This document shows, piece by piece, positions 9,780-45,273 of a stretch of DNA of 46,018 nt. The notes under the pieces are model-generated. The model saw only the letters and a program-made list of their open reading frames with translations, ran no database searches and was not told the DNA's origin. Source of the DNA: Candidatus Microgenomatus sp. (GTDB lineage Bacteria; Patescibacteriota; Microgenomatia; UBA8517); contig DYGT01000001.1 of assembly GCA_020724555.1 (NCBI GenBank), positions 131,197 through 177,214 on the forward strand. The letters run 5' to 3'. Each line of letters begins with the position of its first letter. Position 1 is the stretch's first letter. The translations under genes and the position numbers were made by a program.

Positions 9780-9820
9780 CTAAAACTCCGTTTTTTTATG
9801 TTAAAATATAGCCCAGTAAC

Positions 9821-9874
9821 GCCCTCGTAGTTTTACGATGCGCAAGCATCGGTAAACTCGAGGTGAACCTGTAT
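9821..9874 (+). repeat. Duplicated 5' end of tRNA-Arg plus hairpin insert
   Basis: GCCCTCGTAGTTT at 9821 and 9875; hairpin TTTACGATGCGCAAGCATCGGTAAA between them. Confidence 0.75.
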
Positions 9875-9946
9875 GCCCTCGTAGTTTAATGGACAGAACA
9901 TCGGTTTGCGGAACCGGCAATGGAAGTTCGATTCTTCCCGGGGGCA
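9875..9946 (+). tRNA. tRNA-Arg(GCG)
   Basis: Acceptor stem GCCCTCG/CGGGGGC, anticodon loop TTGCGGA, GTTCGATTC. Confidence 0.9.
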
Positions 9947-10015
9947 CTCATGTAATTCACCAGTTATCAATGCCCAATTTTTAAATTAAAAATTGAGATT
10001 TGAAAATTATTTTAT

Positions 10016-10103
10016 GGTGGGGTGCCGGAGCGGTTAAACGGCCAGCTCTCGAAAAGCTTGGACTCGCTTAGCGGGTACGTGGGTTCGAATCCCACCCTCA
10101 CCG
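10016..10103 (+). tRNA. tRNA-Ser(CGA)
   Basis: Anticodon loop CTCGAAA, long variable arm, GGGTTCGAATCCC. Confidence 0.92.
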
Positions 10104-10163
10104 CCCGTAATTTTCGCGTTGAGTGTGATTTTCGATATCGCTTGCTTATGCAATCGTCGAATC

Positions 10164-10184
10164 CCTGCCTTGCCGGCAGGCAGG
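10164..10184. repeat. Palindrome copy 1 (one extra T), inside a duplicated tRNA-Ser(CGA) 3' end
   Basis: TCGAATC[CCTGCCTTGCCGGCAGGCAGG]CCACCCTCACCGC. Confidence 0.9.
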
Positions 10185-10212
10185 CCACCCTCACCGCTGT
10201 TATAATCAACAA

Positions 10213-11616
10213 GTGAAGAGGATTTTTTTTATAACACTTTTGTCTTCTTTTTTACTTTCGCTTCTGTTTTTAGTTGGTAGAATCGATCAGGATTATTTTT
10301 CTTTTTATTACATTGGCCGTGGTGTGGCTGACGGGGCAGACATGTTTCGGGATTATGCCGATAACAAAGGACCGGTATTATATTTATTTTTTACAGCTTT
10401 ATATAAATTATTTGGCAACTATTATTTAACAGCATTAATTTTTGCAAGCACCTTGGTTGACAGTTTAGCCTTAATTGGCGCTTTCCTATTTTTTAAAAAA
10501 CGGTTCAATATAAGTCTGTCAAAAGGGTTTTTACCTAAATTTTTGATAGTATTTTTCGCGGTTTTGTTTTACAAAAGCTTTTCCATAGGGTCTTTTATGG
10601 GTGGGTTTTATGCCGAGACTTTGGGTTTGATGTTTGTAGTATTTTCTTTGTATTTTTTAGAAGCAAGAAAGTATTTTTTGTCCGGATTACTTTTTTGCCT
10701 TGCCTTTTTGTGTAGATTGACTCTTCTTTTTTGGTTAATTTATTTTCTTTATATTTTACTAAAACAAAAGTTCGCTTTCTCTAAACTTGTAAATTTTGCT
10801 GTCGGTTTTTGTATGCCTTTGGTTATTGTGCTGATTTGGTATTGGCTAAACGAGAATTTGATTTACTTTTTTGGCAATATGATAAATATTAATTTTTCTT
10901 ATGCTTCAGCTGTAAAATCTTTTTATTTTCGCCAACTAGCAGCTGTAGTAACAATCGAAATGCGTATTTTTGTAAGCGTTGTTGCGTCGCTTATTATTTT
11001 TATTTTGCTCTTTAATAAAAAAGATAAATATATTTTTGAATTTGGAGCGATGGGTATATCTGGCATTTTAGCAAGTTTTGTGGGTGGCTTGTTTTATTTT
11101 CACCACTTTATTCAATTTAGTTTGGTATTTTTGTTTTTATTGCTATACTATATCAAAAAATATAGTCGAAAATTAGGGGTATTTTTAATTTTTTTAGTTT
11201 CTATTTTATTAATAGTCAACTATGCTTTGTTTGTTAATACTCCCCAATTGTTTTCTAGATCAGACATTGATGAGATAAGTAAATTTTTTAATAAAGAATA
11301 TATCCAGGTTGTGACATATTATCCCGAGCTTTATGTTCGCTCTGATAATCATTCTTTTGACAGGTATTATCAAATATTTCATATAAGTTCTTTTTATAAT
11401 GTAAATTCAAAAAATTTAATGTTAGAGCATATAGAAAATGTTAAATACTATGGTGATAAAACCGCTTTTGTTTTTGTGGAACAAAACCAATTTGACGCCG
11501 ATATACTAGGCGAGTATAAACAATTTCTAGAAGATGAGGGAGGATTGGAACTCAAACAAGTCTTTCATAAAAAGGATCCCCAAAAAACAATAACTATCTA
11601 TGAAACTAATAATTAA
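10213..11616 (+). CDS. GT-C fold glycosyltransferase (ArnT/PMT-like)
   Basis: Polytopic; DQDYFSFYYIG..DNKGPVLY luminal motif. Confidence 0.75.
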   Translation: MKRIFFITLLSSFLLSLLFLVGRIDQDYFSFYYIGRGVADGADMFRDYADNKGPVLYLFFTALYKLFGNYYLTALIFASTLVDSLALIGAFLFFKKRFNISLSKGFLPKFLIVFFAVLFYKSFSIGSFMGGFYAETLGLMFVVFSLYFLEARKYFLSGLLFCLAFLCRLTLLFWLIYFLYILLKQKFAFSKLVNFAVGFCMPLVIVLIWYWLNENLIYFFGNMININFSYASAVKSFYFRQLAAVVTIEMRIFVSVVASLIIFILLFNKKDKYIFEFGAMGISGILASFVGGLFYFHHFIQFSLVFLFLLLYYIKKYSRKLGVFLIFLVSILLIVNYALFVNTPQLFSRSDIDEISKFFNKEYIQVVTYYPELYVRSDNHSFDRYYQIFHISSFYNVNSKNLMLEHIENVKYYGDKTAFVFVEQNQFDADILGEYKQFLEDEGGLELKQVFHKKDPQKTITIYETNN

Positions 11617-13084
11617 AAAGTATTTTTTTATTGTGTTTGTGTTTTTTGTTTTTTTAATAAAAGCACTAGTACAGCTTGACCCTGATTTTGGATGGCATGT
11701 GCGGTTGGGGGAGATTATTTCGCAAAATGGTATTCCAAGCTTTGATCCTTTTTCTTACACTATGGCAAGCTACCCCTTTGTTGACCATGAATGGTTTACG
11801 AACTTGCTGTTATTTTATTTGCACAATGCGCTAGGACAGTTGGGTTTGGCAATTTTGTTTACGGCTTTGTTGCTGATGATAACGCTTATAGTATTTAGAA
11901 ATAATTTTTTTACTAACAGTTTTACCTTAGCTTTATTGTTTTTGTTTTTGGCAACCCTGCTGCCTTATTTTGGCATCCGTCCACAAGTTCAGTCATGGCT
12001 TTTTTTGTCAATTTTGCTGTGTTTGCTGGAAGAAAAAATATATAAAAAATTTTATTGGGTAATACCGCTTCTTAGCTTGTGGTGGGCAAACGTTCACGGA
12101 AGTTTTGCCATTCTTATTGCAGTTTTATTGATTGATTTTTCGGTTAAGTCTTATTTGAAAAAACGCGTTTTAGTCAAAAGACTTTTGGTTTTGTTTATAA
12201 GTTTATTGGCCACATTTATAACACCTTATTTTTACCGCTCTTGGTGGGAAGTCTACATGCAGGTGACAGATTCAGCCCTTCGCTGGCGGATACAGGAGTG
12301 GCGCCCCAGTTTTATGTTTTTTAGTCTTCCGTTTATTTTTTATCTGGCGATGTACCTCATAGCACTTAAAACCTCTTGGCGCGAATTACCCAAGGAAATA
12401 ATTATTATTTCCTTGTTTTTTTTCATTCAGGCAATTTCGAGCACGCGCCATGTTCCGCTGTGGGCGATAACGGCGACCCCTATTATTTTTTTTAGTTTTA
12501 AAGCTTTTAGAAAACAAGTGTTTAAAGTTAAATTTGGTAAACAAAGGCTGGATCTTGCAGGAAGAGTGTTTTTGGCAATCTCAATATTAATTTTTGTTGC
12601 GCAAACCGCTTTAAGTTTGCTTAGTGCCAGATCTACTTCCGAGTCCGTGTTTTATCCTCAAAAAGCCGTTGAATTTATGCAAGACAATGGATTTGAAGGT
12701 AGAGCCTTTTCTTTATACGCCTGGGGTGGATATTTGCTTTGGAAAGAGCCTGATAAAAAAGTCTACATAGACGGCCGCATGCCAAGTTGGCGTTATAATA
12801 ATGCCCCTGTGGGCGAAACAAATAACGCAATGGAGGATTATTTGAATATTTTAAAAGGTGACAAGGATTTTAACGAAGAGGCGGACAAATATAATATTGA
12901 ATATGTGCTTTTGCCCCGGGAAAACAACAGTAAAGGTATTATTGAAAAGCTGTCTATGTTAATAAAGCCCAAAAAAGATGAAGATTTTTCAATATATGAG
13001 TATTTGCTAAATAACGGCTGGGATATTGTCTATGGCGATGAGGTTTCTGTGATTTATCAGCGAAAGCTGAAGCCGGGGCTGTAA
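11600..13084 (+). CDS. Polytopic membrane protein, probable GT-C glycosyltransferase
   Basis: DPDFGWH, DHEW, RPQ, WANVHGSF, WGGYL, IDGR motifs. Confidence 0.7.
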   Translation: MKLIIKKYFFIVFVFFVFLIKALVQLDPDFGWHVRLGEIISQNGIPSFDPFSYTMASYPFVDHEWFTNLLLFYLHNALGQLGLAILFTALLLMITLIVFRNNFFTNSFTLALLFLFLATLLPYFGIRPQVQSWLFLSILLCLLEEKIYKKFYWVIPLLSLWWANVHGSFAILIAVLLIDFSVKSYLKKRVLVKRLLVLFISLLATFITPYFYRSWWEVYMQVTDSALRWRIQEWRPSFMFFSLPFIFYLAMYLIALKTSWRELPKEIIIISLFFFIQAISSTRHVPLWAITATPIIFFSFKAFRKQVFKVKFGKQRLDLAGRVFLAISILIFVAQTALSLLSARSTSESVFYPQKAVEFMQDNGFEGRAFSLYAWGGYLLWKEPDKKVYIDGRMPSWRYNNAPVGETNNAMEDYLNILKGDKDFNEEADKYNIEYVLLPRENNSKGIIEKLSMLIKPKKDEDFSIYEYLLNNGWDIVYGDEVSVIYQRKLKPGL

Positions 13085-13130
13085 AGCCGAGCTCTGAGAA
13101 AAAACCACTAGCGTGAGTTCACGGAGCTTT

Positions 13131-13263
13131 ATAAACTTCCATGAGCTTACGCTCATGGTTTTTGTCGTGTTCGCTAAAGCGATTTATTTGTAGCTTATAT
13201 CGCCCTCCTGTTTACCTGCCTGCCGGCAGGCAGGCGCATGGAGTTTTACGCTCACATGATAAA
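13131..13263 (-). mobile_element. Gene-less element resembling joined IS200/IS605 ends
   Basis: Minus strand: TTTATCA..GCGTAAAACTCC..GGAGGGCGATATAAGC (left-end-like), then hairpin CCATGAGC-GTAA-GCTCATGG-AAGTTTAT (right-end-like). Resemblance is from recall. Confidence 0.5.
13215..13234. repeat. Perfect 20-bp palindrome, copy 2
   Basis: CCTGCCTGCCGGCAGGCAGG. Confidence 0.92.
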
Positions 13264-13296
13264 CGGAATTACGATTAAAAGGTATAATATGCCTAA

Positions 13297-15057
13297 ATGT
13301 CAGATGCGGTTGAGGAAATAAAAAATAAGATTGATATTGTGGATATTATTGGGGCTCATGTAAACCTTAAAAAAGCCGGCTCCAATTACAAAGGCCTTTG
13401 CCCTTTTCATCAGGAAAAAACGCCATCGTTTATGGTCAGCCCCGAGCTTCAGATTTATAAATGTTTTGGCTGCGGTGAAGCCGGTGACGTCTTTACTTTT
13501 TTAGAAAAATACGAAGGCTTGGAATTTCGGGAAGCTTTGGAGATTTTAGCCGAAAAAGCAGGCGTTAAGCTGGAAAGGAGAAACATCGGCCAAAAGAGTA
13601 AAAAAGAACGCTCAATTGAAATCAATACATTGGCGGCGCGGCTTTATCACTATCTTTTGTTAAAACACTCAGCCGGCAGAGAAGCTTTGGAATATGCCAC
13701 TAAAATCCGCGGCCTTAAGTCGGCTACCTTAACCGCCTTTGAAATAGGCTTTGCGCCTGAGCGAAGCGGCATCTTAATTAAGCAGCTCAAAAAGAAAAAA
13801 GTTAGTGAAACTGAGCTGTTGGAGGCCGGCCTTGTTTATAAAACCCGTTATGGGCCGGTTGAGCGCTTCCGTGGTCGGCTGATTTTTCCTCTTAAAGACC
13901 ACCGCGGGAGGACACTGGCTTTGGCCGGACGGATACTGCCACAGTATGACAAGCCAAATATCGGAAAATACATTAATTCACCGGAAACTCCAAGTTATCA
14001 CAAAAGCGAAGTGGTTTACGGACTGGATATTGCCAAAAGCGAAATAAAAAAACTAAATCAAATAGTTATCGTTGAGGGTGAGCTTGACTTATTAACGCCT
14101 TGGCAAATTGGTGTAAGAAATATTGTTGCCATTAAAGGAACTGCTTTTACCGACAGTCAGATTAGGCTTTTGAGCCGTTTTAGTAAAAATTGGGTAATGG
14201 CACTGGACTCTGATTTTGCGGGAGATAAGGCTGCGGTTAGTGCAATACAGTTAGCTTTAAATATGGGGATATCGGTTAAAGTGGCCAGGCTTGGTAAATA
14301 TAAAGATCCGGATGATTTTGCCAAAGCCGAGCCTGAAAAATTTAAAAAAGCCATATTAAAAGCCCAAGACGCTTGGGATTTTTTGTTTGAACAAGTTTTC
14401 TCCCGCTATGACCTCAAAACCGGCTCGGGAAAAGCGGCGATTAGCCGTGAGGTAACTCCTTTGCTGTCGGCAATAGATGACTCTATCGTCCAGGATCATT
14501 ATGTCAAAAAAATTGCCACAAAGCTTGAAGTCAGCGAGGAGGCGGTCAGGCAAAAGTTGACAAACCCCAAAAAAGAAATTGCTAGTGAACTTGTTGATAT
14601 TGAAAAAGCGGAAGATGTGCGCCTAAGTTTGGAAAAACGGCTTATTTCGGTTTCCTTGCAAAAAAACCCAAGGTATTTGTTAGATGAAGAGGTTAGGAAA
14701 TTATTCATAAAACCCTTTACCAAAAAACTGCTTGCAAAATTGTCGTCGTTTTTAGCAAGTCAGGAATTTGACCCACAAGCTTTTTTGCGAAGCCTTCCGC
14801 CGGAGCTTGCCACCGGTTTTACCGAAATATATCTTCAAGAAGAAGAAGGGGAAGGAGGCAACAGAGCCCTTGATATTGAGCGTGAGCTTGCCAAAATTAC
14901 TTTACGGCTGAAAATTATGAATATCCACGAACAAATGGAGGCATTAACCCATAAAATGAAGCTGGCTGAAAAGAAAAAAGACGAGAGCCTTTTAATAAAA
15001 TACGAAGAAGAATTCGCCACTCTAAGTAAAAAGCGGTCCGAAATTGAGGGCACTTGA
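13297..15057 (+). CDS. dnaG: DNA primase
   Basis: CPFHQEKTPSF zinc finger, KYINSPET, TOPRIM VEGELD and DSDFAG. Confidence 0.97.
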   Translation: MSDAVEEIKNKIDIVDIIGAHVNLKKAGSNYKGLCPFHQEKTPSFMVSPELQIYKCFGCGEAGDVFTFLEKYEGLEFREALEILAEKAGVKLERRNIGQKSKKERSIEINTLAARLYHYLLLKHSAGREALEYATKIRGLKSATLTAFEIGFAPERSGILIKQLKKKKVSETELLEAGLVYKTRYGPVERFRGRLIFPLKDHRGRTLALAGRILPQYDKPNIGKYINSPETPSYHKSEVVYGLDIAKSEIKKLNQIVIVEGELDLLTPWQIGVRNIVAIKGTAFTDSQIRLLSRFSKNWVMALDSDFAGDKAAVSAIQLALNMGISVKVARLGKYKDPDDFAKAEPEKFKKAILKAQDAWDFLFEQVFSRYDLKTGSGKAAISREVTPLLSAIDDSIVQDHYVKKIATKLEVSEEAVRQKLTNPKKEIASELVDIEKAEDVRLSLEKRLISVSLQKNPRYLLDEEVRKLFIKPFTKKLLAKLSSFLASQEFDPQAFLRSLPPELATGFTEIYLQEEEGEGGNRALDIERELAKITLRLKIMNIHEQMEALTHKMKLAEKKKDESLLIKYEEEFATLSKKRSEIEGT

Positions 15058-15081
15058 TAGTTTTAAGTTTGTGTGTATAAT
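15054..15081 (+). promoter_or_regulatory. Putative sigma70 promoter for rpoD
   Basis: TTGATA-16 nt-TATAAT with extended -10 TG. Confidence 0.55.
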
Positions 15082-15091
15082 AAGTTAAATT

Positions 15092-15118
15092 GCGGCGAGT
15101 AAGGCTCGCAGCTTTTTT
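15092..15118 (+). terminator. Terminator-like hairpin between dnaG and rpoD
   Basis: GCGGCGAG-TAAGG-CTCGCAGC followed by T6. Confidence 0.45.
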
Positions 15119-15127
15119 ATTGTCCCC

Positions 15128-16225
15128 ATGTTGCGCAAAGCTACCGAAGAACTAGTTAAAAAAGGGAAAAAGCAGGGTTTTTTGACGCAGGAAGATATTT
15201 TGCAAGTCTTTCCGGACGCAGAAAAGCGTTTGCCGGAATTGGACGAGTTTTATAGTGTTTTGTTGGCAAATAAAATTGACGTTTTTGAATCCGTTGCAAC
15301 CGAAGAAGAAGATATAGAGAAAAAACTCAGTATCGACCAGGAAATAGCCATCCTTGCCAAACTCGAAGGGCCCGAAACCACCGATCCTGTCCGGCAATAC
15401 TTAAGAGAAATTGGCCAATATCCACTTTTGACTGCGGAGGAAGAAATTGAACTTGCGAAAGGTTATGAAAGGGATCGCAAAGAGCGGGGCGAAACCACCA
15501 AAAGCCGCTACAAAGATAAGCTAATCGAAAGCAACCTCAGGCTTGTTGTGTCTATCGCAAAAAAATATATCGGCCGTGGACTTTCTCTTTTGGACTTGAT
15601 TCAGGAGGGAAACCAGGGCTTAATCCGGGCAGTTGAAAAGTATGACTGGCGAAGGGGGTTTAAGTTTAGCACCTATGCTACTTGGTGGATCCGCCAGGCC
15701 ATAACCCGGGCAATTGCTGACCAAGCTCGTACTATCCGCATTCCGGTGCATATGGTAGAAACCATTAACAAGCTCTACCGCATATCCCAGCGGCTCATGC
15801 AAGACTTGGGCCGGGAGCCCACACCTGAGGAAATCGGGGAAGAGCTGGGTATTTCAGCAGACCGGGTGCGCGAAATATTTAAAATTTCCCAGGAAGTTAC
15901 CAGTCTGGATACAAAAGTGGGCGAAGACGAAGACAGCACCCTTGGGGACTTTGTGGCAGATGAGACGCGTCCCTCGCCGGTGGACGCAGCCAGCAAACAA
16001 TTGTTAAAAGACCATTTAGATGAGGTATTACACACCTTGACGGAACGCGAGGCTAAAGTGTTAACTCTTCGTTTTGGCCTTGACGGTGGGCAACCAAAGA
16101 CACTTGAAGAAGTAGGAAAAGTATTTGGCGTGACCCGCGAGCGCATCCGTCAAATTGAAGCTAAAGCTCTTCGTAAACTAAAGCACCCAAGCCGCCGCAA
16201 AAAACTTCAGGATTATTTAGAATAA
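15128..16225 (+). CDS. rpoD: Primary sigma factor
   Basis: [54 protein letters not shown]. Confidence 0.98.
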
Positions 16226-17554
16226 TCATTTTATAAACCAGTAAAGAAGCAGGTGATAAATGGTCACCAAAAAAACCACGAGGATAGAAATATTTTTTTG
16301 CTTTTCTACGTTTAGACTTGCAAGGGCTACAATGGGTGTCAGATACCAGCTCAAAACCAGGCTCAATTTGGTTAAAATAAAAACGCTATAAACCGCAAAA
16401 CAGGCAAAGATGAGTTTTTGAAAAGAATATTTATTAACCAAAAACCATATTCCGGTTAATCCCCCTATTAATAAAAAGATAAAATTGTTGAGTTTAAAGG
16501 CTTGTGTGTAGCTTACAACTTGATCCAAAAGCCAGATGCCCAAGGAAGGGCTTATTGTTTGGCCGTGATAAAAATTCAAAAGAAACGAAAACGTTTCTCT
16601 TCCTTGCCAAAAAGGATAATAAAATACTGCCGCAATCCCCAAGCAGAAAGCGCCGATTAATATAGATTTATAAAAGAATTGGTTTAAACTTAATTTTTGT
16701 TTAAAAAGGGTAAAAACATAAAACGGCACAAACACGGTTGTAGTGCCTTTAATAAGGATAGACAAAACCAGAAATATAAAAGAAAAAAAGATGCGTTTAT
16801 GTTTTAAAGCCAGCGCCGAAAGCAGAAGCAAAAATATTAGCAAAGATTCATTGTGGGCGTTTGCAGCAAGCTCATAAACCACCAAAGGATTCCAGCTGTA
16901 TAAAAACAGTGCTTTTGCGGACTTCGTGATTTTATAGATTAAATAGCCGTTTACAAGATTCGCGCCAATCAGAAGTGTTTTAAAAAGGATAAATGTTAGT
17001 GGGTAATGGTTCAGGCCGATTGTGTTAATAAAACTGCTGATAAATAAAAACATGGGGCCGTAGAGCGTGGGTTTGCCAGACCAATAGTTACTAATGATAG
17101 GGTAAAGCGGATCGCCCCAATATTGGCTGTAAGTATCAATGTAGGGGTTTGCTCCTTGGTTTACAACCCGGCCAATTGCTATATAGGAGTGTAAATCATT
17201 GGATGTAAAAAAGGGCACAAAAATAAACCCTACCTGAAACAGCACGGAGAATAGAAAAATTGTTTTTAAATTAGCGGACGTAAATTTTGCTTTAAAAAGT
17301 ACTAAAAAATAAATTAGATATAAAATTACAAGAAGTGTAATAACAAGATTCAGGTGTATTTGTGTGTGTAAATTAAGTTCACCAAAATGCCACTTTAGAA
17401 GATAGAAGGAAATATAAAGCAGTTCTGTTGCCAGACCGGCAATAACAAACGGATTTTTTGCAAATTTACTCGCGGCAGCAATCGATGGCTTTTTGTACGA
17501 GTTCGCCCATTTTGTCAAAAACGGAAAGCGATTGTTTCTTTTTGCCTTTTTCAT
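16226..17554 (-). CDS. GT-C glycosyltransferase (MptB/GT87-like); start uncertain
   Basis: SNDLHSY, NPY, YGP, WNPLVVYE..NAHNE. The called start overlaps the upstream gene by 89 nt. Confidence 0.75.
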   Translation of the reverse strand: MKKAKRNNRFPFLTKWANSYKKPSIAAASKFAKNPFVIAGLATELLYISFYLLKWHFGELNLHTQIHLNLVITLLVILYLIYFLVLFKAKFTSANLKTIFLFSVLFQVGFIFVPFFTSNDLHSYIAIGRVVNQGANPYIDTYSQYWGDPLYPIISNYWSGKPTLYGPMFLFISSFINTIGLNHYPLTFILFKTLLIGANLVNGYLIYKITKSAKALFLYSWNPLVVYELAANAHNESLLIFLLLLSALALKHKRIFFSFIFLVLSILIKGTTTVFVPFYVFTLFKQKLSLNQFFYKSILIGAFCLGIAAVFYYPFWQGRETFSFLLNFYHGQTISPSLGIWLLDQVVSYTQAFKLNNFIFLLIGGLTGIWFLVNKYSFQKLIFACFAVYSVFILTKLSLVLSWYLTPIVALASLNVEKQKNISILVVFLVTIYHLLLYWFIK

Positions 17555-18014
17555 CGATTAAATCAATTTTATCGCTTTTGCTTTTAATATTTAAAGCGTC
17601 TTTGGTGTCAACCACATTTAGATTTATGGCCCAAAAGAGGCTATAGAGTTTGTAAGCTTTTTCAAACAAATCCCAGGCCTCGCCTTTATTACCCTTTTTA
17701 AGCTCTTTGGTGCCCACTTCCATTACCCTCATGCTGGCGGCAAGTAAGTGCTTACTGATGCACCACACCTCACCTTCATAGTCTTTGATAATATTTTTCA
17801 AAAGTTCGGTGCGCATGAGCCTCACTTCATTTAAAAGATCCAGATATTTTTGGTTTTTCGTTTTTTGGGCGGTGAAAAATAGATGCTCCTCAATTGAAAT
17901 AAGGTTCATAATACCGATAGATAAATCTTCGCCGCTGCTAAGGTCAAGATCCTTTTGTTGCGTTACTTTTTCCACCTTATCTAAAAGTGTTTGGATGTCT
18001 TTTTTGTTGGCCAT
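17466..18014 (-). CDS. Hypothetical helical protein with C-terminal CC (paralog of 37535-38092)
   Basis: EDLSIGIMNLISIEEH, EVWCISKHLL, AIDCCRE. Confidence 0.85.
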   Translation of the reverse strand: MANKKDIQTLLDKVEKVTQQKDLDLSSGEDLSIGIMNLISIEEHLFFTAQKTKNQKYLDLLNEVRLMRTELLKNIIKDYEGEVWCISKHLLAASMRVMEVGTKELKKGNKGEAWDLFEKAYKLYSLFWAINLNVVDTKDALNIKSKSDKIDLIDEKGKKKQSLSVFDKMGELVQKAIDCCRE

Positions 18015-18545
18015 TTAGATATTTAGATTTAAGCTTGTAAGCAAAAACATTATAACGCTTGCAGTCAAAAGAAAAGCTACGGGTAGAATTACTTTTTGAA
18101 AATCAATAAGCTGCCTTCCTTTGCTTTGCCTGATTTTTTTATCAGCAGCAATACCCAGATAAAAAGTAAATATGCCCAAGATAATGCCAAAAAGGAGTTT
18201 GTCGATTCCTAAAATGGTATTGTTGGGGTGCCCCATTACACCGCCAAGCTTGAGAGGAATGATGGTTAAGATAAACCAGACGATCATGGAAATAATTGAG
18301 CCGTAAGGTATATTTATATTTTTTTTCTTAAGCCAATTGGCGCTCCAAAGCGCGAGAGCCATAATTAGCCCGCCAAACCAGATGCCACTTGCGGCATCAT
18401 CTATGCCCAAGTAGCGCGAAAGGCCCAGCCCGGCGCCGACAGCAACGGTACACACGGGGCAGACAGCTTTTGCTGGAGCTAAATTTATAAAATAAAAAGA
18501 AATTAAAGTAATTCCAAAAACAAAAAATTTAATTATTTTCTTCAT
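18015..18545 (-). CDS. CPVC-motif membrane protein (paralog of 37012-37521)
   Basis: Signal-like N-terminus, AVCPVCTVAVGAGLG, GIDD, several TM helices. Confidence 0.85.
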   Translation of the reverse strand: MKKIIKFFVFGITLISFYFINLAPAKAVCPVCTVAVGAGLGLSRYLGIDDAASGIWFGGLIMALALWSANWLKKKNINIPYGSIISMIVWFILTIIPLKLGGVMGHPNNTILGIDKLLFGIILGIFTFYLGIAADKKIRQSKGRQLIDFQKVILPVAFLLTASVIMFLLTSLNLNI

Positions 18546-18930
18546 CGGAGTACAAAGTGTTTAAGTAATCAATAATGGGTTGGTCGCCAACGATACATTC
18601 TCCCTGGGGGGTAAACACCAAGGGCACGCCGATTTGTGTTGCTGGGATGTTACAAGATAGCGCGCGGGCCTGCAGGCGGCTGGCGTTTTCGGGGTTTGCG
18701 GTTTCATATTTGTCCAAAGCAAATTCTTCCGTATGCTCCCATCCTTCCATAAATTCATTGACAACTGCGCAATGAGGGCAAGTGGTGCTCCAGTAGTATT
18801 CATGATTTTGGGGTAGTGGCAGGTCGGACACTTCCTGTTGTTTATCACCCGAAAATAGAAATAAACCGGCAATTACTACTATAACTATGCCGACGATAAA
18901 CCCCAAAATGGCTTTATTCATATCACTCAT
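18529..18930 (-). CDS. Membrane-anchored glutaredoxin/thioredoxin-like protein (paralog of 36548-37015)
   Basis: TM anchor, TCPHC, IGVP cis-Pro motif; start moved to 18930. Confidence 0.8.
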   Translation of the reverse strand: MSDMNKAILGFIVGIVIVVIAGLFLFSGDKQQEVSDLPLPQNHEYYWSTTCPHCAVVNEFMEGWEHTEEFALDKYETANPENASRLQARALSCNIPATQIGVPLVFTPQGECIVGDQPIIDYLNTLYSDEENN

Positions 18931-18985
18931 ACTACTGATATTTATTAGCGGTTGCAAGAGCAAATTATGTTGTACAATCAGTGAG

Positions 18986-20122
18986 ATGGTGTTTAAAAAT
19001 ATCACATTAATTGAAAAATCCAAATTAATATTAATAGCCGCTACCGGTCTTTTGGTTTTGGCCATCTCGGCTTTGGCCACCGTTTTTTTGTTTAATATAA
19101 GTTATTCAGAAGAGCCCGAAACCATGGAATATAGTAGCCAAGATGTACAAAAATATACCGCAGAGATTGAAGCCCGCACTGATCCCAGCTTTAATGTGCT
19201 TCTTTTGGGTTATGGTGGAGCTGATCATGACGGAAGTTTTTTAACGGATGCAATCAAGCTTGTTAATATAGACCCTGTCACAAAAGACGTGACCGTGATT
19301 TCGATCCCGCGTGATTTATGGGTGGAAATACCGGTGCGTTCCGATATGGGGGAATATCAAAAAATAAACGCCGCCTATGCCATTGGTATGGACGACAATT
19401 ATCCGTTAAAGCAAACTCAGTACAGGGGAGTAGAGGGCGCGCAAAAGCTGGTGGGAGATGTGGTGGAGGCGATAACGGGCAAAAAGGTGGATGGGGTGAT
19501 TGCCGTGGATTTTGCCGGACTTATTGATACTGTGGACGCTTTGGGCGGGATTGAGGTAAATGTGCCGGTTACTTTTGACGACTATTTTTATCCCATTAAA
19601 GGTGAGGAAAATAATATTTGTGGCAAAAGTCCGGAGGAAATGGAGCGTATCCACGCGCTTTACAGTGGTTTTGAGCTTGAGAAACAGTTTGAGTGCCGCT
19701 ATGAACACCTCCATTTTGACGCCGGTATAAACCATATGGATGGGCAGACTGTCCTTAAATTCGTGCGCTCGCGCCATTCCAATGAACATGGTGGAGATTT
19801 TGCCCGTGCCCAAAGGCAGATGGCGGTTTTGTCTGCCATTAAAGAAAAAGTTTTATCGCTTGGGGCTTTTGATAATGTGCCAGGTTTTATCAAAAATTAC
19901 ACAAGATCGGTGACTACTAATTTAAAAGCAGAGGCTATAATTGCCTTTTTAGCTAAGTTTCCTGAGACAGGCGGTTACAGCACAAAAAGTATCACCTTGT
20001 CAGACGAAAACGTTTTGACTAATGCTACAAGTCCAGAGGGAGCTTATATACTTGAGCCCCGAGCAGGTCAAGGTAATTTCACTGACGTAAAGGCGTATAT
20101 AAATGCGGAGCTCGAAAAATAA
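18986..20122 (+). CDS. LCP-family (LytR/CpsA/Psr) protein
   Basis: NVLLLG, LTDAI, ISIPRDLWV, KINAAY, FVRSRH, GDFARAQRQ; start moved to 18986. Confidence 0.9.
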   Translation: MVFKNITLIEKSKLILIAATGLLVLAISALATVFLFNISYSEEPETMEYSSQDVQKYTAEIEARTDPSFNVLLLGYGGADHDGSFLTDAIKLVNIDPVTKDVTVISIPRDLWVEIPVRSDMGEYQKINAAYAIGMDDNYPLKQTQYRGVEGAQKLVGDVVEAITGKKVDGVIAVDFAGLIDTVDALGGIEVNVPVTFDDYFYPIKGEENNICGKSPEEMERIHALYSGFELEKQFECRYEHLHFDAGINHMDGQTVLKFVRSRHSNEHGGDFARAQRQMAVLSAIKEKVLSLGAFDNVPGFIKNYTRSVTTNLKAEAIIAFLAKFPETGGYSTKSITLSDENVLTNATSPEGAYILEPRAGQGNFTDVKAYINAELEK

Positions 20123-20194
20123 ACTCATGGGCTAAATTTAGCTAGAAACAGCCGAATTTAAATGATATAATCTTCTCGCACATTTTAAACACAT

Positions 20195-20240
20195 TCCCCG
20201 GTAGCCCTGCCTGCCGGCAGGCAGGTCAACGGTAGGGCGA
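20195..20240 (+). repeat. Copy of tRNA-Asn 5' end interrupted by palindrome copy 3 (20206-20225)
   Basis: TCCCCGGTAGC[CCTGCCTGCCGGCAGGCAGG]TCAACGGTAGGGCG versus tRNA TCCCCGGTAACTCAGCGGTAGAGTG. Confidence 0.85.
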
Positions 20241-20251
20241 TATAATATGTT

Positions 20252-20492
20252 ATGTATTATGTCTATGTTTTAAAAAATTCAAACGTGTTTTGTATAAGGG
20301 TTTGACTAATAACATGAATCGACGGTTTGATGAACATAATAAAAACAAAAATATTGGCACGCGCGGTAAGGTCCTTGGAGGTTGATATATAGTGAAAAAT
20401 ATGTGAGCAGAAGTAAGGCTCGGGCAAGAGAAAAGTATTTTAAATCTGGTTCGGGCAGAGAACATTTAAAACAAATCATTGATCCCCGGTAA
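20252..20492 (+). pseudogene. Small GIY-YIG nuclease with two frameshifts
   Basis: MYYVYVLKNSN/VLYKGLTNNMNRRFDEHN..TRGK/PWRLIYSE..ARAREKYFKSGSGR; stop lies inside tRNA-Asn. Confidence 0.85.
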
Positions 20493-20557
20493 CTCAGCGG
20501 TAGAGTGCTCGCCTGTTAAGCGAAGAGTCGTAGGTTCGAATCCTACCCGGGGAGCCA
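20483..20557 (+). tRNA. tRNA-Asn(GTT)
   Basis: Acceptor TCCCCGG/CCGGGGA, loop CTGTTAA, encoded CCA. Confidence 0.95.
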
Positions 20558-44781: not shown

Positions 44782-45069
44782 ATGTATTATTGTTACATTC
44801 TCTCAAGTTCAAAATTTCACATTTTCTACTTTGGGTCAGCTAATGATTTGAAAGCAAGATTAAAGCAACATAACAACGGTGAAGTTAAATCAACTAAAGC
44901 ACATTTGCCATGGAAATTAGTGTGGTACGGCGCATTTAGTACTGAAAAAGAAGCCAGAGATTTTAAGGGTGAGTCGGGCAAGGCCTTTGCCTATAAGAGG
45001 CTAGTGCCAGTAGCCCTGGAGAAGGATTTCTCAACGGGTAGAAAAAGTAGTCCGAAGTCTCTGACGTAG
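44782..45069 (+). CDS. Small GIY-YIG nuclease (possible short internal deletion)
   Basis: MYYCYIL..FYFGSANDLKARLKQHN..STK..PWKLVWY; the usual Glu after EARDF is missing. Confidence 0.8.
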   Translation: MYYCYILSSSKFHIFYFGSANDLKARLKQHNNGEVKSTKAHLPWKLVWYGAFSTEKEARDFKGESGKAFAYKRLVPVALEKDFSTGRKSSPKSLT

Positions 45070-45273
45070 GTTACCTACCGGGGAGCCAGATGGGTCATTC
45101 TTCAAATTAATATAAACGCAACTTCTTGAAAACATAATATCTTGGGATATAATACGCTTGCTATCGGGTGATAGCGGATTGTCCATTTATCTACCTCAGT
45201 TGGAGTTAAGAAATGCAACAGCCAGTCACAGTTCTCAGGGTTGGGAGAGCAATAGACATTTTCAGAACTTCTC

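Follow-up and report, generated by a model that had tools for sequence, protein, structure and literature searches.

The stretch analysed here (the window) covers 46,018 nucleotides (nt) of Candidatus Microgenomatus sp. (assembly GCA_020724555.1, contig DYGT01000001.1, positions 131,197 to 177,214) and contains three copies of a perfect 20-bp palindrome, CCTGCCTGCCGGCAGGCAGG, which we call P. P behaves as one of the smallest insertion elements. Comparisons within this genome (G000, a 901.5-kb scaffolded metagenome assembly with N runs, 94% complete), with its same-genus sister genome G001 and with other sampled loci (L-numbers) show that P is a discrete, ultra-short unit inserted precisely into unrelated DNA in many phyla and in viral contigs. 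Among target sites it favours the D-arm of tRNA genes most strongly (TAGA/GC), and there P is usually followed by a mini GIY-YIG nuclease gene and then by an intact tRNA copy. With a probability of about one half, we consider P to be a non-autonomous insertion element and the hairpin partner of one lineage of nuclease genes, which encode single-domain GIY-YIG proteins of ~75-95 residues and lodge in tRNA genes.

Exact searches with the 20-mer located copy 2 (13215..13234) and copy 3 (20206..20225), while copy 1 (10164..10184), recognised by direct reading and half-site search, carries an extra T (CCTGCCTTGCCGGCAGGCAGG). No match to P was obtained in 100 dinucleotide-preserving shuffles of the window. 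Contigs from an independent study (run X4) span 9800-14950 and 15878-20556 with 0 gaps and include all three copies; since the copies recur there, P is no artefact, which answers at contig level the concern about adapters or misassembly raised in the initial annotation of this DNA. That annotation had placed P at the same three positions, which were borne out, had described the two copies in tRNA pieces as free of target duplications, and had seen none in coding sequences. The flanks of all three copies indeed lack a target duplication, although in other places a fair share of copies, still a minority, have 7-nt direct repeats on either side. None of the three lies in a long open reading frame (ORF) of the window, whereas other genomes have in-frame copies. 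P contains no stop codon in any frame and its predicted hairpin has a folding energy of -13.9 kcal/mol (RNA parameters).

The idea of an ultra-short mobile unit, also put forward from the letters of the window, is supported by nested copies, in-frame copies and empty sites. At L039 and L063 one P is nested within another, and at L101 (cccggtttc/P/gaaaccggg), L089 and L137 it occupies the exact centre of other inverted repeats. In-frame copies, read as LPAGRQ or PACRQAG, are present in bS6 (L005 and L068, two genomes and two different places), TsaD (L007 and L020), LeuRS/ValRS (L004 and L006), an S1-domain protein (L013) and others. In five of the seven coding copies checked by eye the same base stands at both sides of P, so that the coding insert is 21 nt long. 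Such copies matter for annotation, as they add LPAGRQ-like inserts to essential proteins, and P copies also break tRNA predictions and assemblies. At the viral locus L210, P (401-420) is found at the variable-loop position of an otherwise intact tRNA-Met, and a related copy occurs in L184. ARAGORN calls this tRNA-Met both with P, as a long variable arm, and after in-silico deletion of P; among 197 loci, L210 is the only one where a tRNA is called in both states. Empty sites could be reconstructed, as had been proposed, from the plain tRNA-Asn of G001, from the region upstream of dnaG in G001 and from three of the six paralogues of an intergenic repeat (E2, described below) that lack P. Two Flagellimonas genomes gave no syntenic match across P sites. 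In this genus (L054 versus G065) P was seen to form part of a longer module, about 75-145 nt in size and found again from one species to another; a distinct repeat of about 75 nt, present in more than 25 copies, adjoins this module.

Two of the window copies split pieces of tRNA genes. Copy 1 interrupts a 3' relic of tRNA-Ser, running from the T-loop to the acceptor end (10157-10163 + 10185-10197, plus strand), at the border of T-loop and stem. After deletion of P its flanks, tcgaatc/ccaccctcaccgc, are identical to the T-loop-to-3'-end part of the intact tRNA-Ser(cga) at 10015..10106 (plus strand; ARAGORN; Rfam tRNA 45.4 bits), which has no P and lies upstream of the relic, 57 nt before copy 1. 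This confirms the exact T-arm/acceptor copy read earlier from the sequence. Copy 3 is located in the middle of the D-stem (GC/TC) of an old tRNA-Asn 5' end (positions 1-11 and 12-25; 20195..20239, plus strand), recognised from its flanks and from synteny with G001. The P-deleted flanks, tccccggtagc/tcaacggtagggcg, are the first 25 bases of a tRNA-Asn (acceptor and D-arm); the D-arm piece is thus confirmed as well, though 4 of the 25 positions differ from the resident tRNA-Asn (20483-20557). The GIY-YIG start noted by the initial annotation, 27 nt past copy 3, is also present (ATG at 20252); however, the gene that begins there is split between three frames (MYYVYVLKNSN / VLYKGLTNNMNRRFDEHN... 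/ ...EKYFKSGSGREHLKQIIDPR). Three-frame translation and Pfam GIY-YIG pieces of 21.3 and 19.3 bits, both below the cut-off, define it as a mini GIY-YIG nuclease pseudogene (20252..20492, plus strand). A reading of TGA as Trp was dropped because two frameshifts remain. The stop codon of the pseudogene falls inside the start of an intact tRNA-Asn(gtt) (20483..20557, plus strand; ARAGORN; Rfam tRNA 66.2 bits), which is regenerated downstream of this cassette.

The same order of parts is found in a tRNA-Ile cassette of G000 (C9:21840-22224), composed of tRNA-Ile positions 1-23, P, positions 24-29, an intact 73-residue GIY-YIG ORF at C9:21896-22114 and an intact tRNA-Ile. In both cassettes P is placed mid D-stem, and the two sites, GA/GC in the Ile piece and GC/TC in the Asn piece, are one 4-mer read from opposite strands. 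Copy 3 is a cassette with a decayed nuclease gene, and copy 1 is a mirror-image relic at the 3' side of a tRNA-Ser. At the syntenic place in G001 a plain tRNA-Asn directly follows the upstream gene, with neither P nor the nuclease gene, and the P-split piece of G000 keeps the position and the promoter-like upstream flank of this G001 tRNA-Asn. In run X6 one low-depth contig joins 20203 to 20527, which may represent a cassette-less allele in the natural population; the main strain of that run has P, together with an additional 38-nt deletion in the GIY-YIG pseudogene. A scan of metagenome contigs for an empty allele of the Asn fragment (0-25 nt gap) returned 0 stretches and is uninformative, because the filled form also returned 0 stretches. 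The window holds a second mini GIY-YIG gene, intact, of 95 residues and without P (44782-45069, plus strand), followed at about 45060-45090 by a tRNA-Asn-like 3' fragment (gacgtaggtt..acctaccggggagcca).

The link between P and mini GIY-YIG genes extends to other genomes. A scan of metagenome contigs for TAGA-P-GC returned at least 127 sites in 120 loci, and the following counts refer to 74 D-arm sites, among the matches listed, with at least 400 nt of downstream sequence. A GIY-YIG match on the same strand was found at 42 of them, and in 38 of these 42 it begins 12-39 nt past P. Intact tRNAs, belonging to 11 isotypes, are present downstream at 57 of the 74 sites and begin either 224-305 nt or 7-112 nt past the end of P. 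Both a GIY-YIG match and a tRNA occur at 36 sites, and neither at 11. All-against-all clustering of 425 ORFs neighbouring P yielded the GIY-YIG cluster and the in-frame hosts only. Within 120 nt of P, loci L022-L101 have 154 ORFs of 85 residues or more, and 150 of them were scanned with Pfam for a recurrent neighbour gene family; this candidate was rejected: housekeeping families were obtained, with no transposase recurring.

The mini GIY-YIG ORFs encode 73-95 residues with nothing outside the GIY-YIG domain (Pfam GIY-YIG 45-65 bits). An intact P-linked example with 79 residues is found at L058. The best solved relatives of the P-linked proteins are the UPF0213 proteins 1ywl and 1zg2 (E about 6e-4), and NCBIfam gave no match over its cut-off for them. 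In a maximum likelihood tree of 38 mini GIY-YIG proteins (L174, with 42 residues, was dropped for its length) the type of palindrome upstream of the gene is clustered: 8 changes suffice for it, while shuffling gave a mean of 14.9 and never, in 200 trials, a value as small. The 8 P-linked rows, which come from Microgenomates, WWE3, metagenome-assembled genomes of Chitinophagales and Gammaproteobacteria and a viral contig, require 3 changes against 7.4 in shuffles (0 of 500 as low).

Several observations weigh against the partnership. Among the 74 D-arm sites, 21 have the P-split fragment directly before the tRNA with no nuclease gene. Only one of the 150 scanned ORFs beside P has a GIY-YIG domain, most copies being solo and next to housekeeping genes. 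Conversely, P accompanies just 2 of the 8 small GIY-YIG loci of G000 and 4 of the 30 in relatives, most of whose other GIY-YIG loci have different GC palindromes in tRNA pieces, such as GTCGCCnnnGGCGAC and TCCGCCAGCTGGCGGA. None of the five small GIY-YIG genes of Longitalea adjoins P, and three carry another palindrome. The P-linked proteins fall in a poorly resolved part of the 38-row tree, which leaves room for one origin or for several. GIY-YIG genes are present in 59 of 61 relatives (median 5 in P-bearing genomes versus 3), so that presence or absence cannot discriminate, and the correlation between P copies and GIY-YIG gene counts that the initial annotation had proposed to test is weak (rho 0.33) among kin that are not independent. 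The contigs of four independent runs, which drop rare variants, show no joint that skips exactly P. Finally, GIY-YIG enzymes hydrolyse DNA and are not known to join it, so insertion of P would need host repair. Small GIY-YIG proteins had been named early as a candidate mobiliser; this stands as far as adjacency (42 of 74) and tree clustering go, but the association is not universal and fails in Longitalea.

Other palindromes and GIY-YIG arrangements were observed along with these loci. TRNA pieces with other small GC palindromes lie beside other mini GIY-YIG genes (G000:C9:22230-22560, C5:52080-52590 and L154-L179), and these palindromes often replace exactly the anticodon arm of the tRNA piece (GTCGCCnnnGGCGAC, GTCCGA..TCGGAC). 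The 16-bp perfect palindrome TCCGCCAGCTGGCGGA occurs in unrelated phyla (L001, L032, L037 and L170). In G000 a mini GIY-YIG gene is found inside the 5' part of a 16S rRNA gene, with rRNA sequence on both sides (C9:28584-28799, minus strand). Three tandem, near-identical 89-residue GIY-YIG genes follow a tRNA-Met at L246 (G063:C11:46400-48300), each followed by a 3' tRNA-Met piece with TCCGCCGGCTGGCGGA. In Flavivirga, tandem GIY-YIG genes (L250, G064:C12:62300-64300) are flanked by gtcattcctgc..gcaggaatcc hairpins that resemble the published SRM/NTS consensus, and P is present in the loop of such hairpins in L113, L040 and L089.

The claim that P targets hairpins holds in one respect only. Directly adjacent inverted repeats of at least 7 were found at 8 of 146 P sites against 16 of 2436 control junctions from the same loci, but fold energy and loop position equal the controls. 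P-deleted 60-mers gave -11.93 kcal/mol versus -11.92 kcal/mol for controls (n=182 and 813), so that the fold-energy enrichment predicted by the initial annotation is absent, and the junction lies in a predicted hairpin loop at 57 of 182 P sites and 262 of 813 controls. Tests for tRNA similarity gave a different picture: 12 of 182 P sites, against 9 of 807 controls, have their junction inside a tRNA-like match; tRNA positions 21-24 are the place of 7 of 13 tRNA-like P sites. Exact 7-nt direct repeats were detected at 4 of 146 P sites and 2 of 2436 control junctions. The majority of the 146 sites have neither an adjacent inverted repeat nor a 7-nt direct repeat. The base beside P, read outward, is T in 43% and A in 9%. 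In Longitalea, where 20 of the 49 copies were fetched for flank analysis, P is located at the unit borders of heptamer arrays such as (TTNNGCG)n (lag-7 match 0.443 versus 0.20-0.33 at other lags), and the 7-nt stretches directly left and right of P differ from each other at no more than two positions in 9 of the 20 copies. Such arrays may have arisen as footprints of repeated insertion or may be what P prefers as a target. Heptamer periodicity beside P was not found in the relatives from the candidate phyla radiation (CPR). The short intergenic regions of Longitalea luteola (G063, L222-L241) contain little else than degenerate heptamer arrays of the (TTNNGCG)n or AAATCTC-like kind.

Copy 2 is a different case, since it rode along in the small intergenic repeat E2 (13134..13263, plus strand; blastn and MAFFT), with P at its central hairpin site. 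E2 is present six times in the genome (window 13134-13263, C16:28917, C16:119609, C5:67163, C4:36209 and C16:55168); three copies have P at the identical central site and three do not. At this site the copy on C4 has an intact hairpin, tccaagc-gtta-gcttgga. E2 is about 80-130 nt long, has hairpins and ends in catgataaa just upstream of genes (dnaG, ddl). The spacer between the upstream gene and dnaG measures 255 nt in the window and about 40 nt in G001, which lacks the whole ~215-nt intergenic insert around copy 2. The contig joint 13186->13238, seen in runs X4, X6 and X8, corresponds to a P-less E2 paralogue. Of the 20 nt that follow copy 3 on its right, 17 are identical beside copy 2, so P can travel with some flank. 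Copy 2 had been described as sitting in the loop of an IS200/605-like hairpin: the C4 paralogue supports the hairpin loop, but not the likeness to IS200/605, as no Y1 transposase match exists in the genome. Rfam at the gathering threshold (window and L015) reported tRNAs and tmRNA only, and nothing at copy 2.

A genome-wide count, as the initial annotation had envisaged, gave 10 copies of P in G000, of which 6 are exact (C5:67192, C9:21862, C9:144411, C9:151402, C14:1490 and C16:55168) and 4 are variants. Two of the variants have the extra T (C9:141360, which is window copy 1, and C14:23949), one lacks a C and is in tandem with C14:1490 (C14:1510), and one is degenerate (C3:52985). Five of the 10 copies split tRNA pieces, namely C9:21862 (tRNA-Ile 5'), copy 3 (tRNA-Asn 5'), copy 1 (tRNA-Ser 3') and the tandem pair, which lies inside a T-loop-like 3' piece directly after tRNA-Ala(cgc). 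Allowing one mismatch, P was found in 21 of 61 related genomes, G000 included, while a reversed-pattern control gave 0. P extends to the same class, with 14 copies, and the same-genus genome has no P at this threshold. In a collection with one genome per species at least 123 stretches contain P, from about nine phylum-level groups; by our own arithmetic a given 20-mer is expected there about once by chance. Judged by their titles, the matches listed include Patescibacteria groups, Bacteroidota (four of them cultured), Omnitrophota, Planctomycetota, Gamma- and 'delta'-proteobacteria, and further Bdellovibrionales, Thermodesulfovibrio, Thermodesulfobacteriota and Chloroflexi. Five Bacteroidota genomes searched with up to two mismatches have 49, 39, 8, 6 and 1 copies, the highest counts being those of the cultured Longitalea (49) and Flavivirga (39). 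Decayed copies with 1-2 mismatches are common. Viral contigs provided 40 stretches with P. One viral contig of 29.5 kb (L204-L206, L213 and L214) has six copies, several of them centred in longer inverted repeats, and is possibly a hotspot or carrier of P.

If P and these nucleases are partners, the following sequence of events may be envisaged, by analogy with the Ssn nucleases and their NTS/SRM hairpins. The P-linked nuclease would bind the P hairpin in single-stranded DNA and nick nearby. Breaks made by the nuclease in hairpin-prone DNA, above all in tRNA genes and in other palindromes, might be repaired by copying or ligating in P, and insertion would then be a by-product of breakage in hairpin-prone single-stranded DNA. 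In the left-over tRNA piece P may destroy the target, or may prevent mispairing between the relic and the working tRNA. Copies standing alone would survive where they are harmless, that is, between genes, in frame in proteins or as an extra tRNA arm. P would be identical across phyla because of horizontal transfer, probably on phages and with the cassette.

A somewhat unlikely alternative, and the one that survives best, is that P is mobile without a dedicated enzyme, or with one that was not found, and that its perfect, GC-rich self-complementarity lets the general machinery of replication and repair carry it into breaks by template switching, hairpin processing and ligation. If so, P would be found in dead tRNA pieces next to GIY-YIG genes because harmless or helpful insertions are the ones that survive selection, and no partnership would be implied. 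This agrees with more than 90% of copies being solo among housekeeping genes, with the 49 and 39 copies of Longitalea and Flavivirga, which have no P-adjacent nuclease genes, with the similar behaviour of other small GC palindromes (TCCGCCAGCTGGCGGA, GTCGCCnnnGGCGAC) and with the position of P at heptamer-array unit borders in Longitalea. Moreover, the direct repeats at its flanks measure 5, 7, 8 or 14 nt, a variation that suits repair more than a single transposase. However, many palindromes should result from a general process, whereas P is a single 20-mer that stays invariant across phyla; selection alone does not account for so regular a D-arm geometry, in which the nuclease gene follows at 12-39 nt; and the hairpin type tracks the nuclease clade.

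A bolder proposal, which we regard as doubtful, makes P the smallest self-propagating DNA unit yet seen, with 20 bases, no cargo and a cut-and-ligate route peculiar to perfect palindromes. In this scheme the folded 20-mer would be freed or copied by a mini GIY-YIG single-strand nuclease, which would also open hairpin tips or the cloverleaf DNA of tRNA genes; ligation of the P hairpin, by its blunt base, into the opening would then leave no target duplication. Repeated insertion and loss with a 7-nt stagger could build the heptamer arrays around P in Bacteroidota, and recognition by the nuclease could keep P invariant while phages carry it across phyla.

It is improbable that P is a host-selected functional site, such as a protein-binding site, a terminator or an RNA-stabilising hairpin, that spreads only with the surrounding DNA. 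The invariant sequence, the stable hairpin (-13.9 kcal/mol), its occurrence within the 5' leaders of nuclease genes and ahead of dnaG and ddl, and the right flank shared by copies 2 and 3 (17 of 20) would all suit a functional site. But P is patchy in close relatives (21 of 61, with a same-genus genome lacking it), varies from 1 to 49 copies within Bacteroidota, is commonly decayed by 1-2 mismatches and occurs in frame in conserved proteins, in tRNA pieces and nested in P. More improbable still is a REP-like (repetitive extragenic palindromic) sequence moved by a Y1 HUH transposase, either RAYT or the TnpA of IS200/605, the other mobiliser considered in the initial annotation. P is short, palindromic and free of target duplications in the window, and Y1_Tnp genes occur in 17 of 21 P-bearing relatives versus 22 of 40 without P; yet PF01797 gave 0 matches in G000, G004, G012 and G023, which have 6, 6, 13 and 1 P copies, no transposase recurs among the 150 neighbouring ORFs, and neither a REPIN doublet arrangement nor a Y1 gene flanked by P was found. 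A perfect palindrome in a scaffolded metagenome assembly with N runs resembles an adapter dimer, but an adapter, linker or assembly artefact is refuted at contig level by the independent contigs, by P in cultured isolates and hundreds of assemblies from many laboratories, and by diverged copies in biologically coherent contexts.

A literature search retrieved no paper with the 20-mer or its 14-mer core, the supplements of the Ssn study, which possibly list related motifs, lying outside its coverage. Topic searches (GIY-YIG with tRNA gene, palindrome, or CPR/Patescibacteria), whose coverage did not extend to Elhai 2008, found no description of an element like P. Short dispersed palindromes such as REP, NTS, the small dispersed repeats (SDR) and the Rickettsia palindromic elements (RPE) are old puzzles, and their mode of multiplication is mostly not known. 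P offers a tractable case, with one invariant 20-base sequence, precise junctions, a fixed nuclease link at tRNA genes and cultured hosts with 39-49 copies. If the partnership is true, a life style as mobile elements would be added to what is known of the recently discovered single-strand-specific GIY-YIG nucleases, there would be a reason why CPR genomes contain so many tRNA fragments and small GIY-YIG genes, and a new sequence-specific pair of single-stranded DNA enzyme and site would be at hand.

Among known systems, the Ssn nucleases are single-domain GIY-YIG proteins of about 94 residues whose binding sites are hairpin repeats at the flanks of their own genes. The cut, made in single-stranded DNA, lies a few nucleotides upstream, and the enzymes are inactive on double-stranded DNA and RNA; their authors (Chenal et al. 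2025) note an insertion sequence-like layout, according to the sections of PMC11893778 on which we draw. As there described, P resembles the Ssn and NTS/SRM pair in the ~90-residue single-domain GIY-YIG protein, in the GC-rich hairpin repeat beside the gene and in its dispersal over the genome. However, SRM hairpins are imperfect, oriented, about 30 nt long and variable between species, whereas P is perfect and identical across phyla (same sections of PMC11893778). SRMs are usually placed on both sides of the gene (PMC11893778, same sections), while P was seen upstream only, inside a tRNA relic; no P was seen downstream of mini GIY-YIG genes at the loci examined in G000 and relatives. Insertion of NTS into genes or tRNAs is absent from the Ssn description in these sections (PMC11893778), whereas P inserts there. 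With the REP/REPIN-RAYT system, as far as PMC3116915 was consulted, P shares short, dispersed, non-autonomous palindromes thought to be moved in trans by an enzyme that acts on hairpins. REPs are species-specific and extragenic and REPINs are inverted doublets; P in contrast is spread across phyla, also inside genes, and is single, with one tandem pair (G000:C14:1490). No Y1 gene was found in G000 and three other P-bearing genomes, which again separates P from REP/REPIN-RAYT.

Unlike a miniature inverted-repeat transposable element (MITE), the whole unit of P is one 20-bp palindrome, without internal segment or fixed-length duplication. The SDR of Nostocaceae (Elhai et al. 2008) are reportedly very small mobile repeats whose mobiliser is not known. 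They measure 21-27 nt and are reported as mobile and restricted to Nostocaceae in the part of PMC5861425 consulted. Compared by these partial descriptions only, P is like SDR in being very small and mobile, and unlike them in being present in many phyla. Rickettsia palindromic elements and the GC clusters of yeast mitochondria are palindromic selfish DNA found in frame in genes and in RNA genes of AT-rich genomes; they measure about 30-150 bp, are restricted to lineages and have neither a linked nuclease gene nor a tRNA-relic layout. P is likewise palindromic and survives in frame, but it is shorter, with a nuclease link and tRNA relics. Free-standing GIY-YIG homing endonuclease genes, for example SegB in the tRNA cluster of phage T4, place a nuclease gene among tRNA genes with empty sites in relatives, and the Seg enzymes and I-TevI have a separate DNA-binding domain and a long recognition site. 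The P cassettes resemble them in having a nuclease at a tRNA target, an empty tRNA-Asn in G001 and the low-depth joint 20203-20527 of run X6. Unlike Seg, the proteins found here have 73-95 residues and the GIY-YIG domain only, and the 5' end of the tRNA is duplicated, the old copy having the palindrome. P works like REP, NTS/SRM, SDR and RPE, yet it fails the tested features of REP/RAYT, IS200/605 and MITE.

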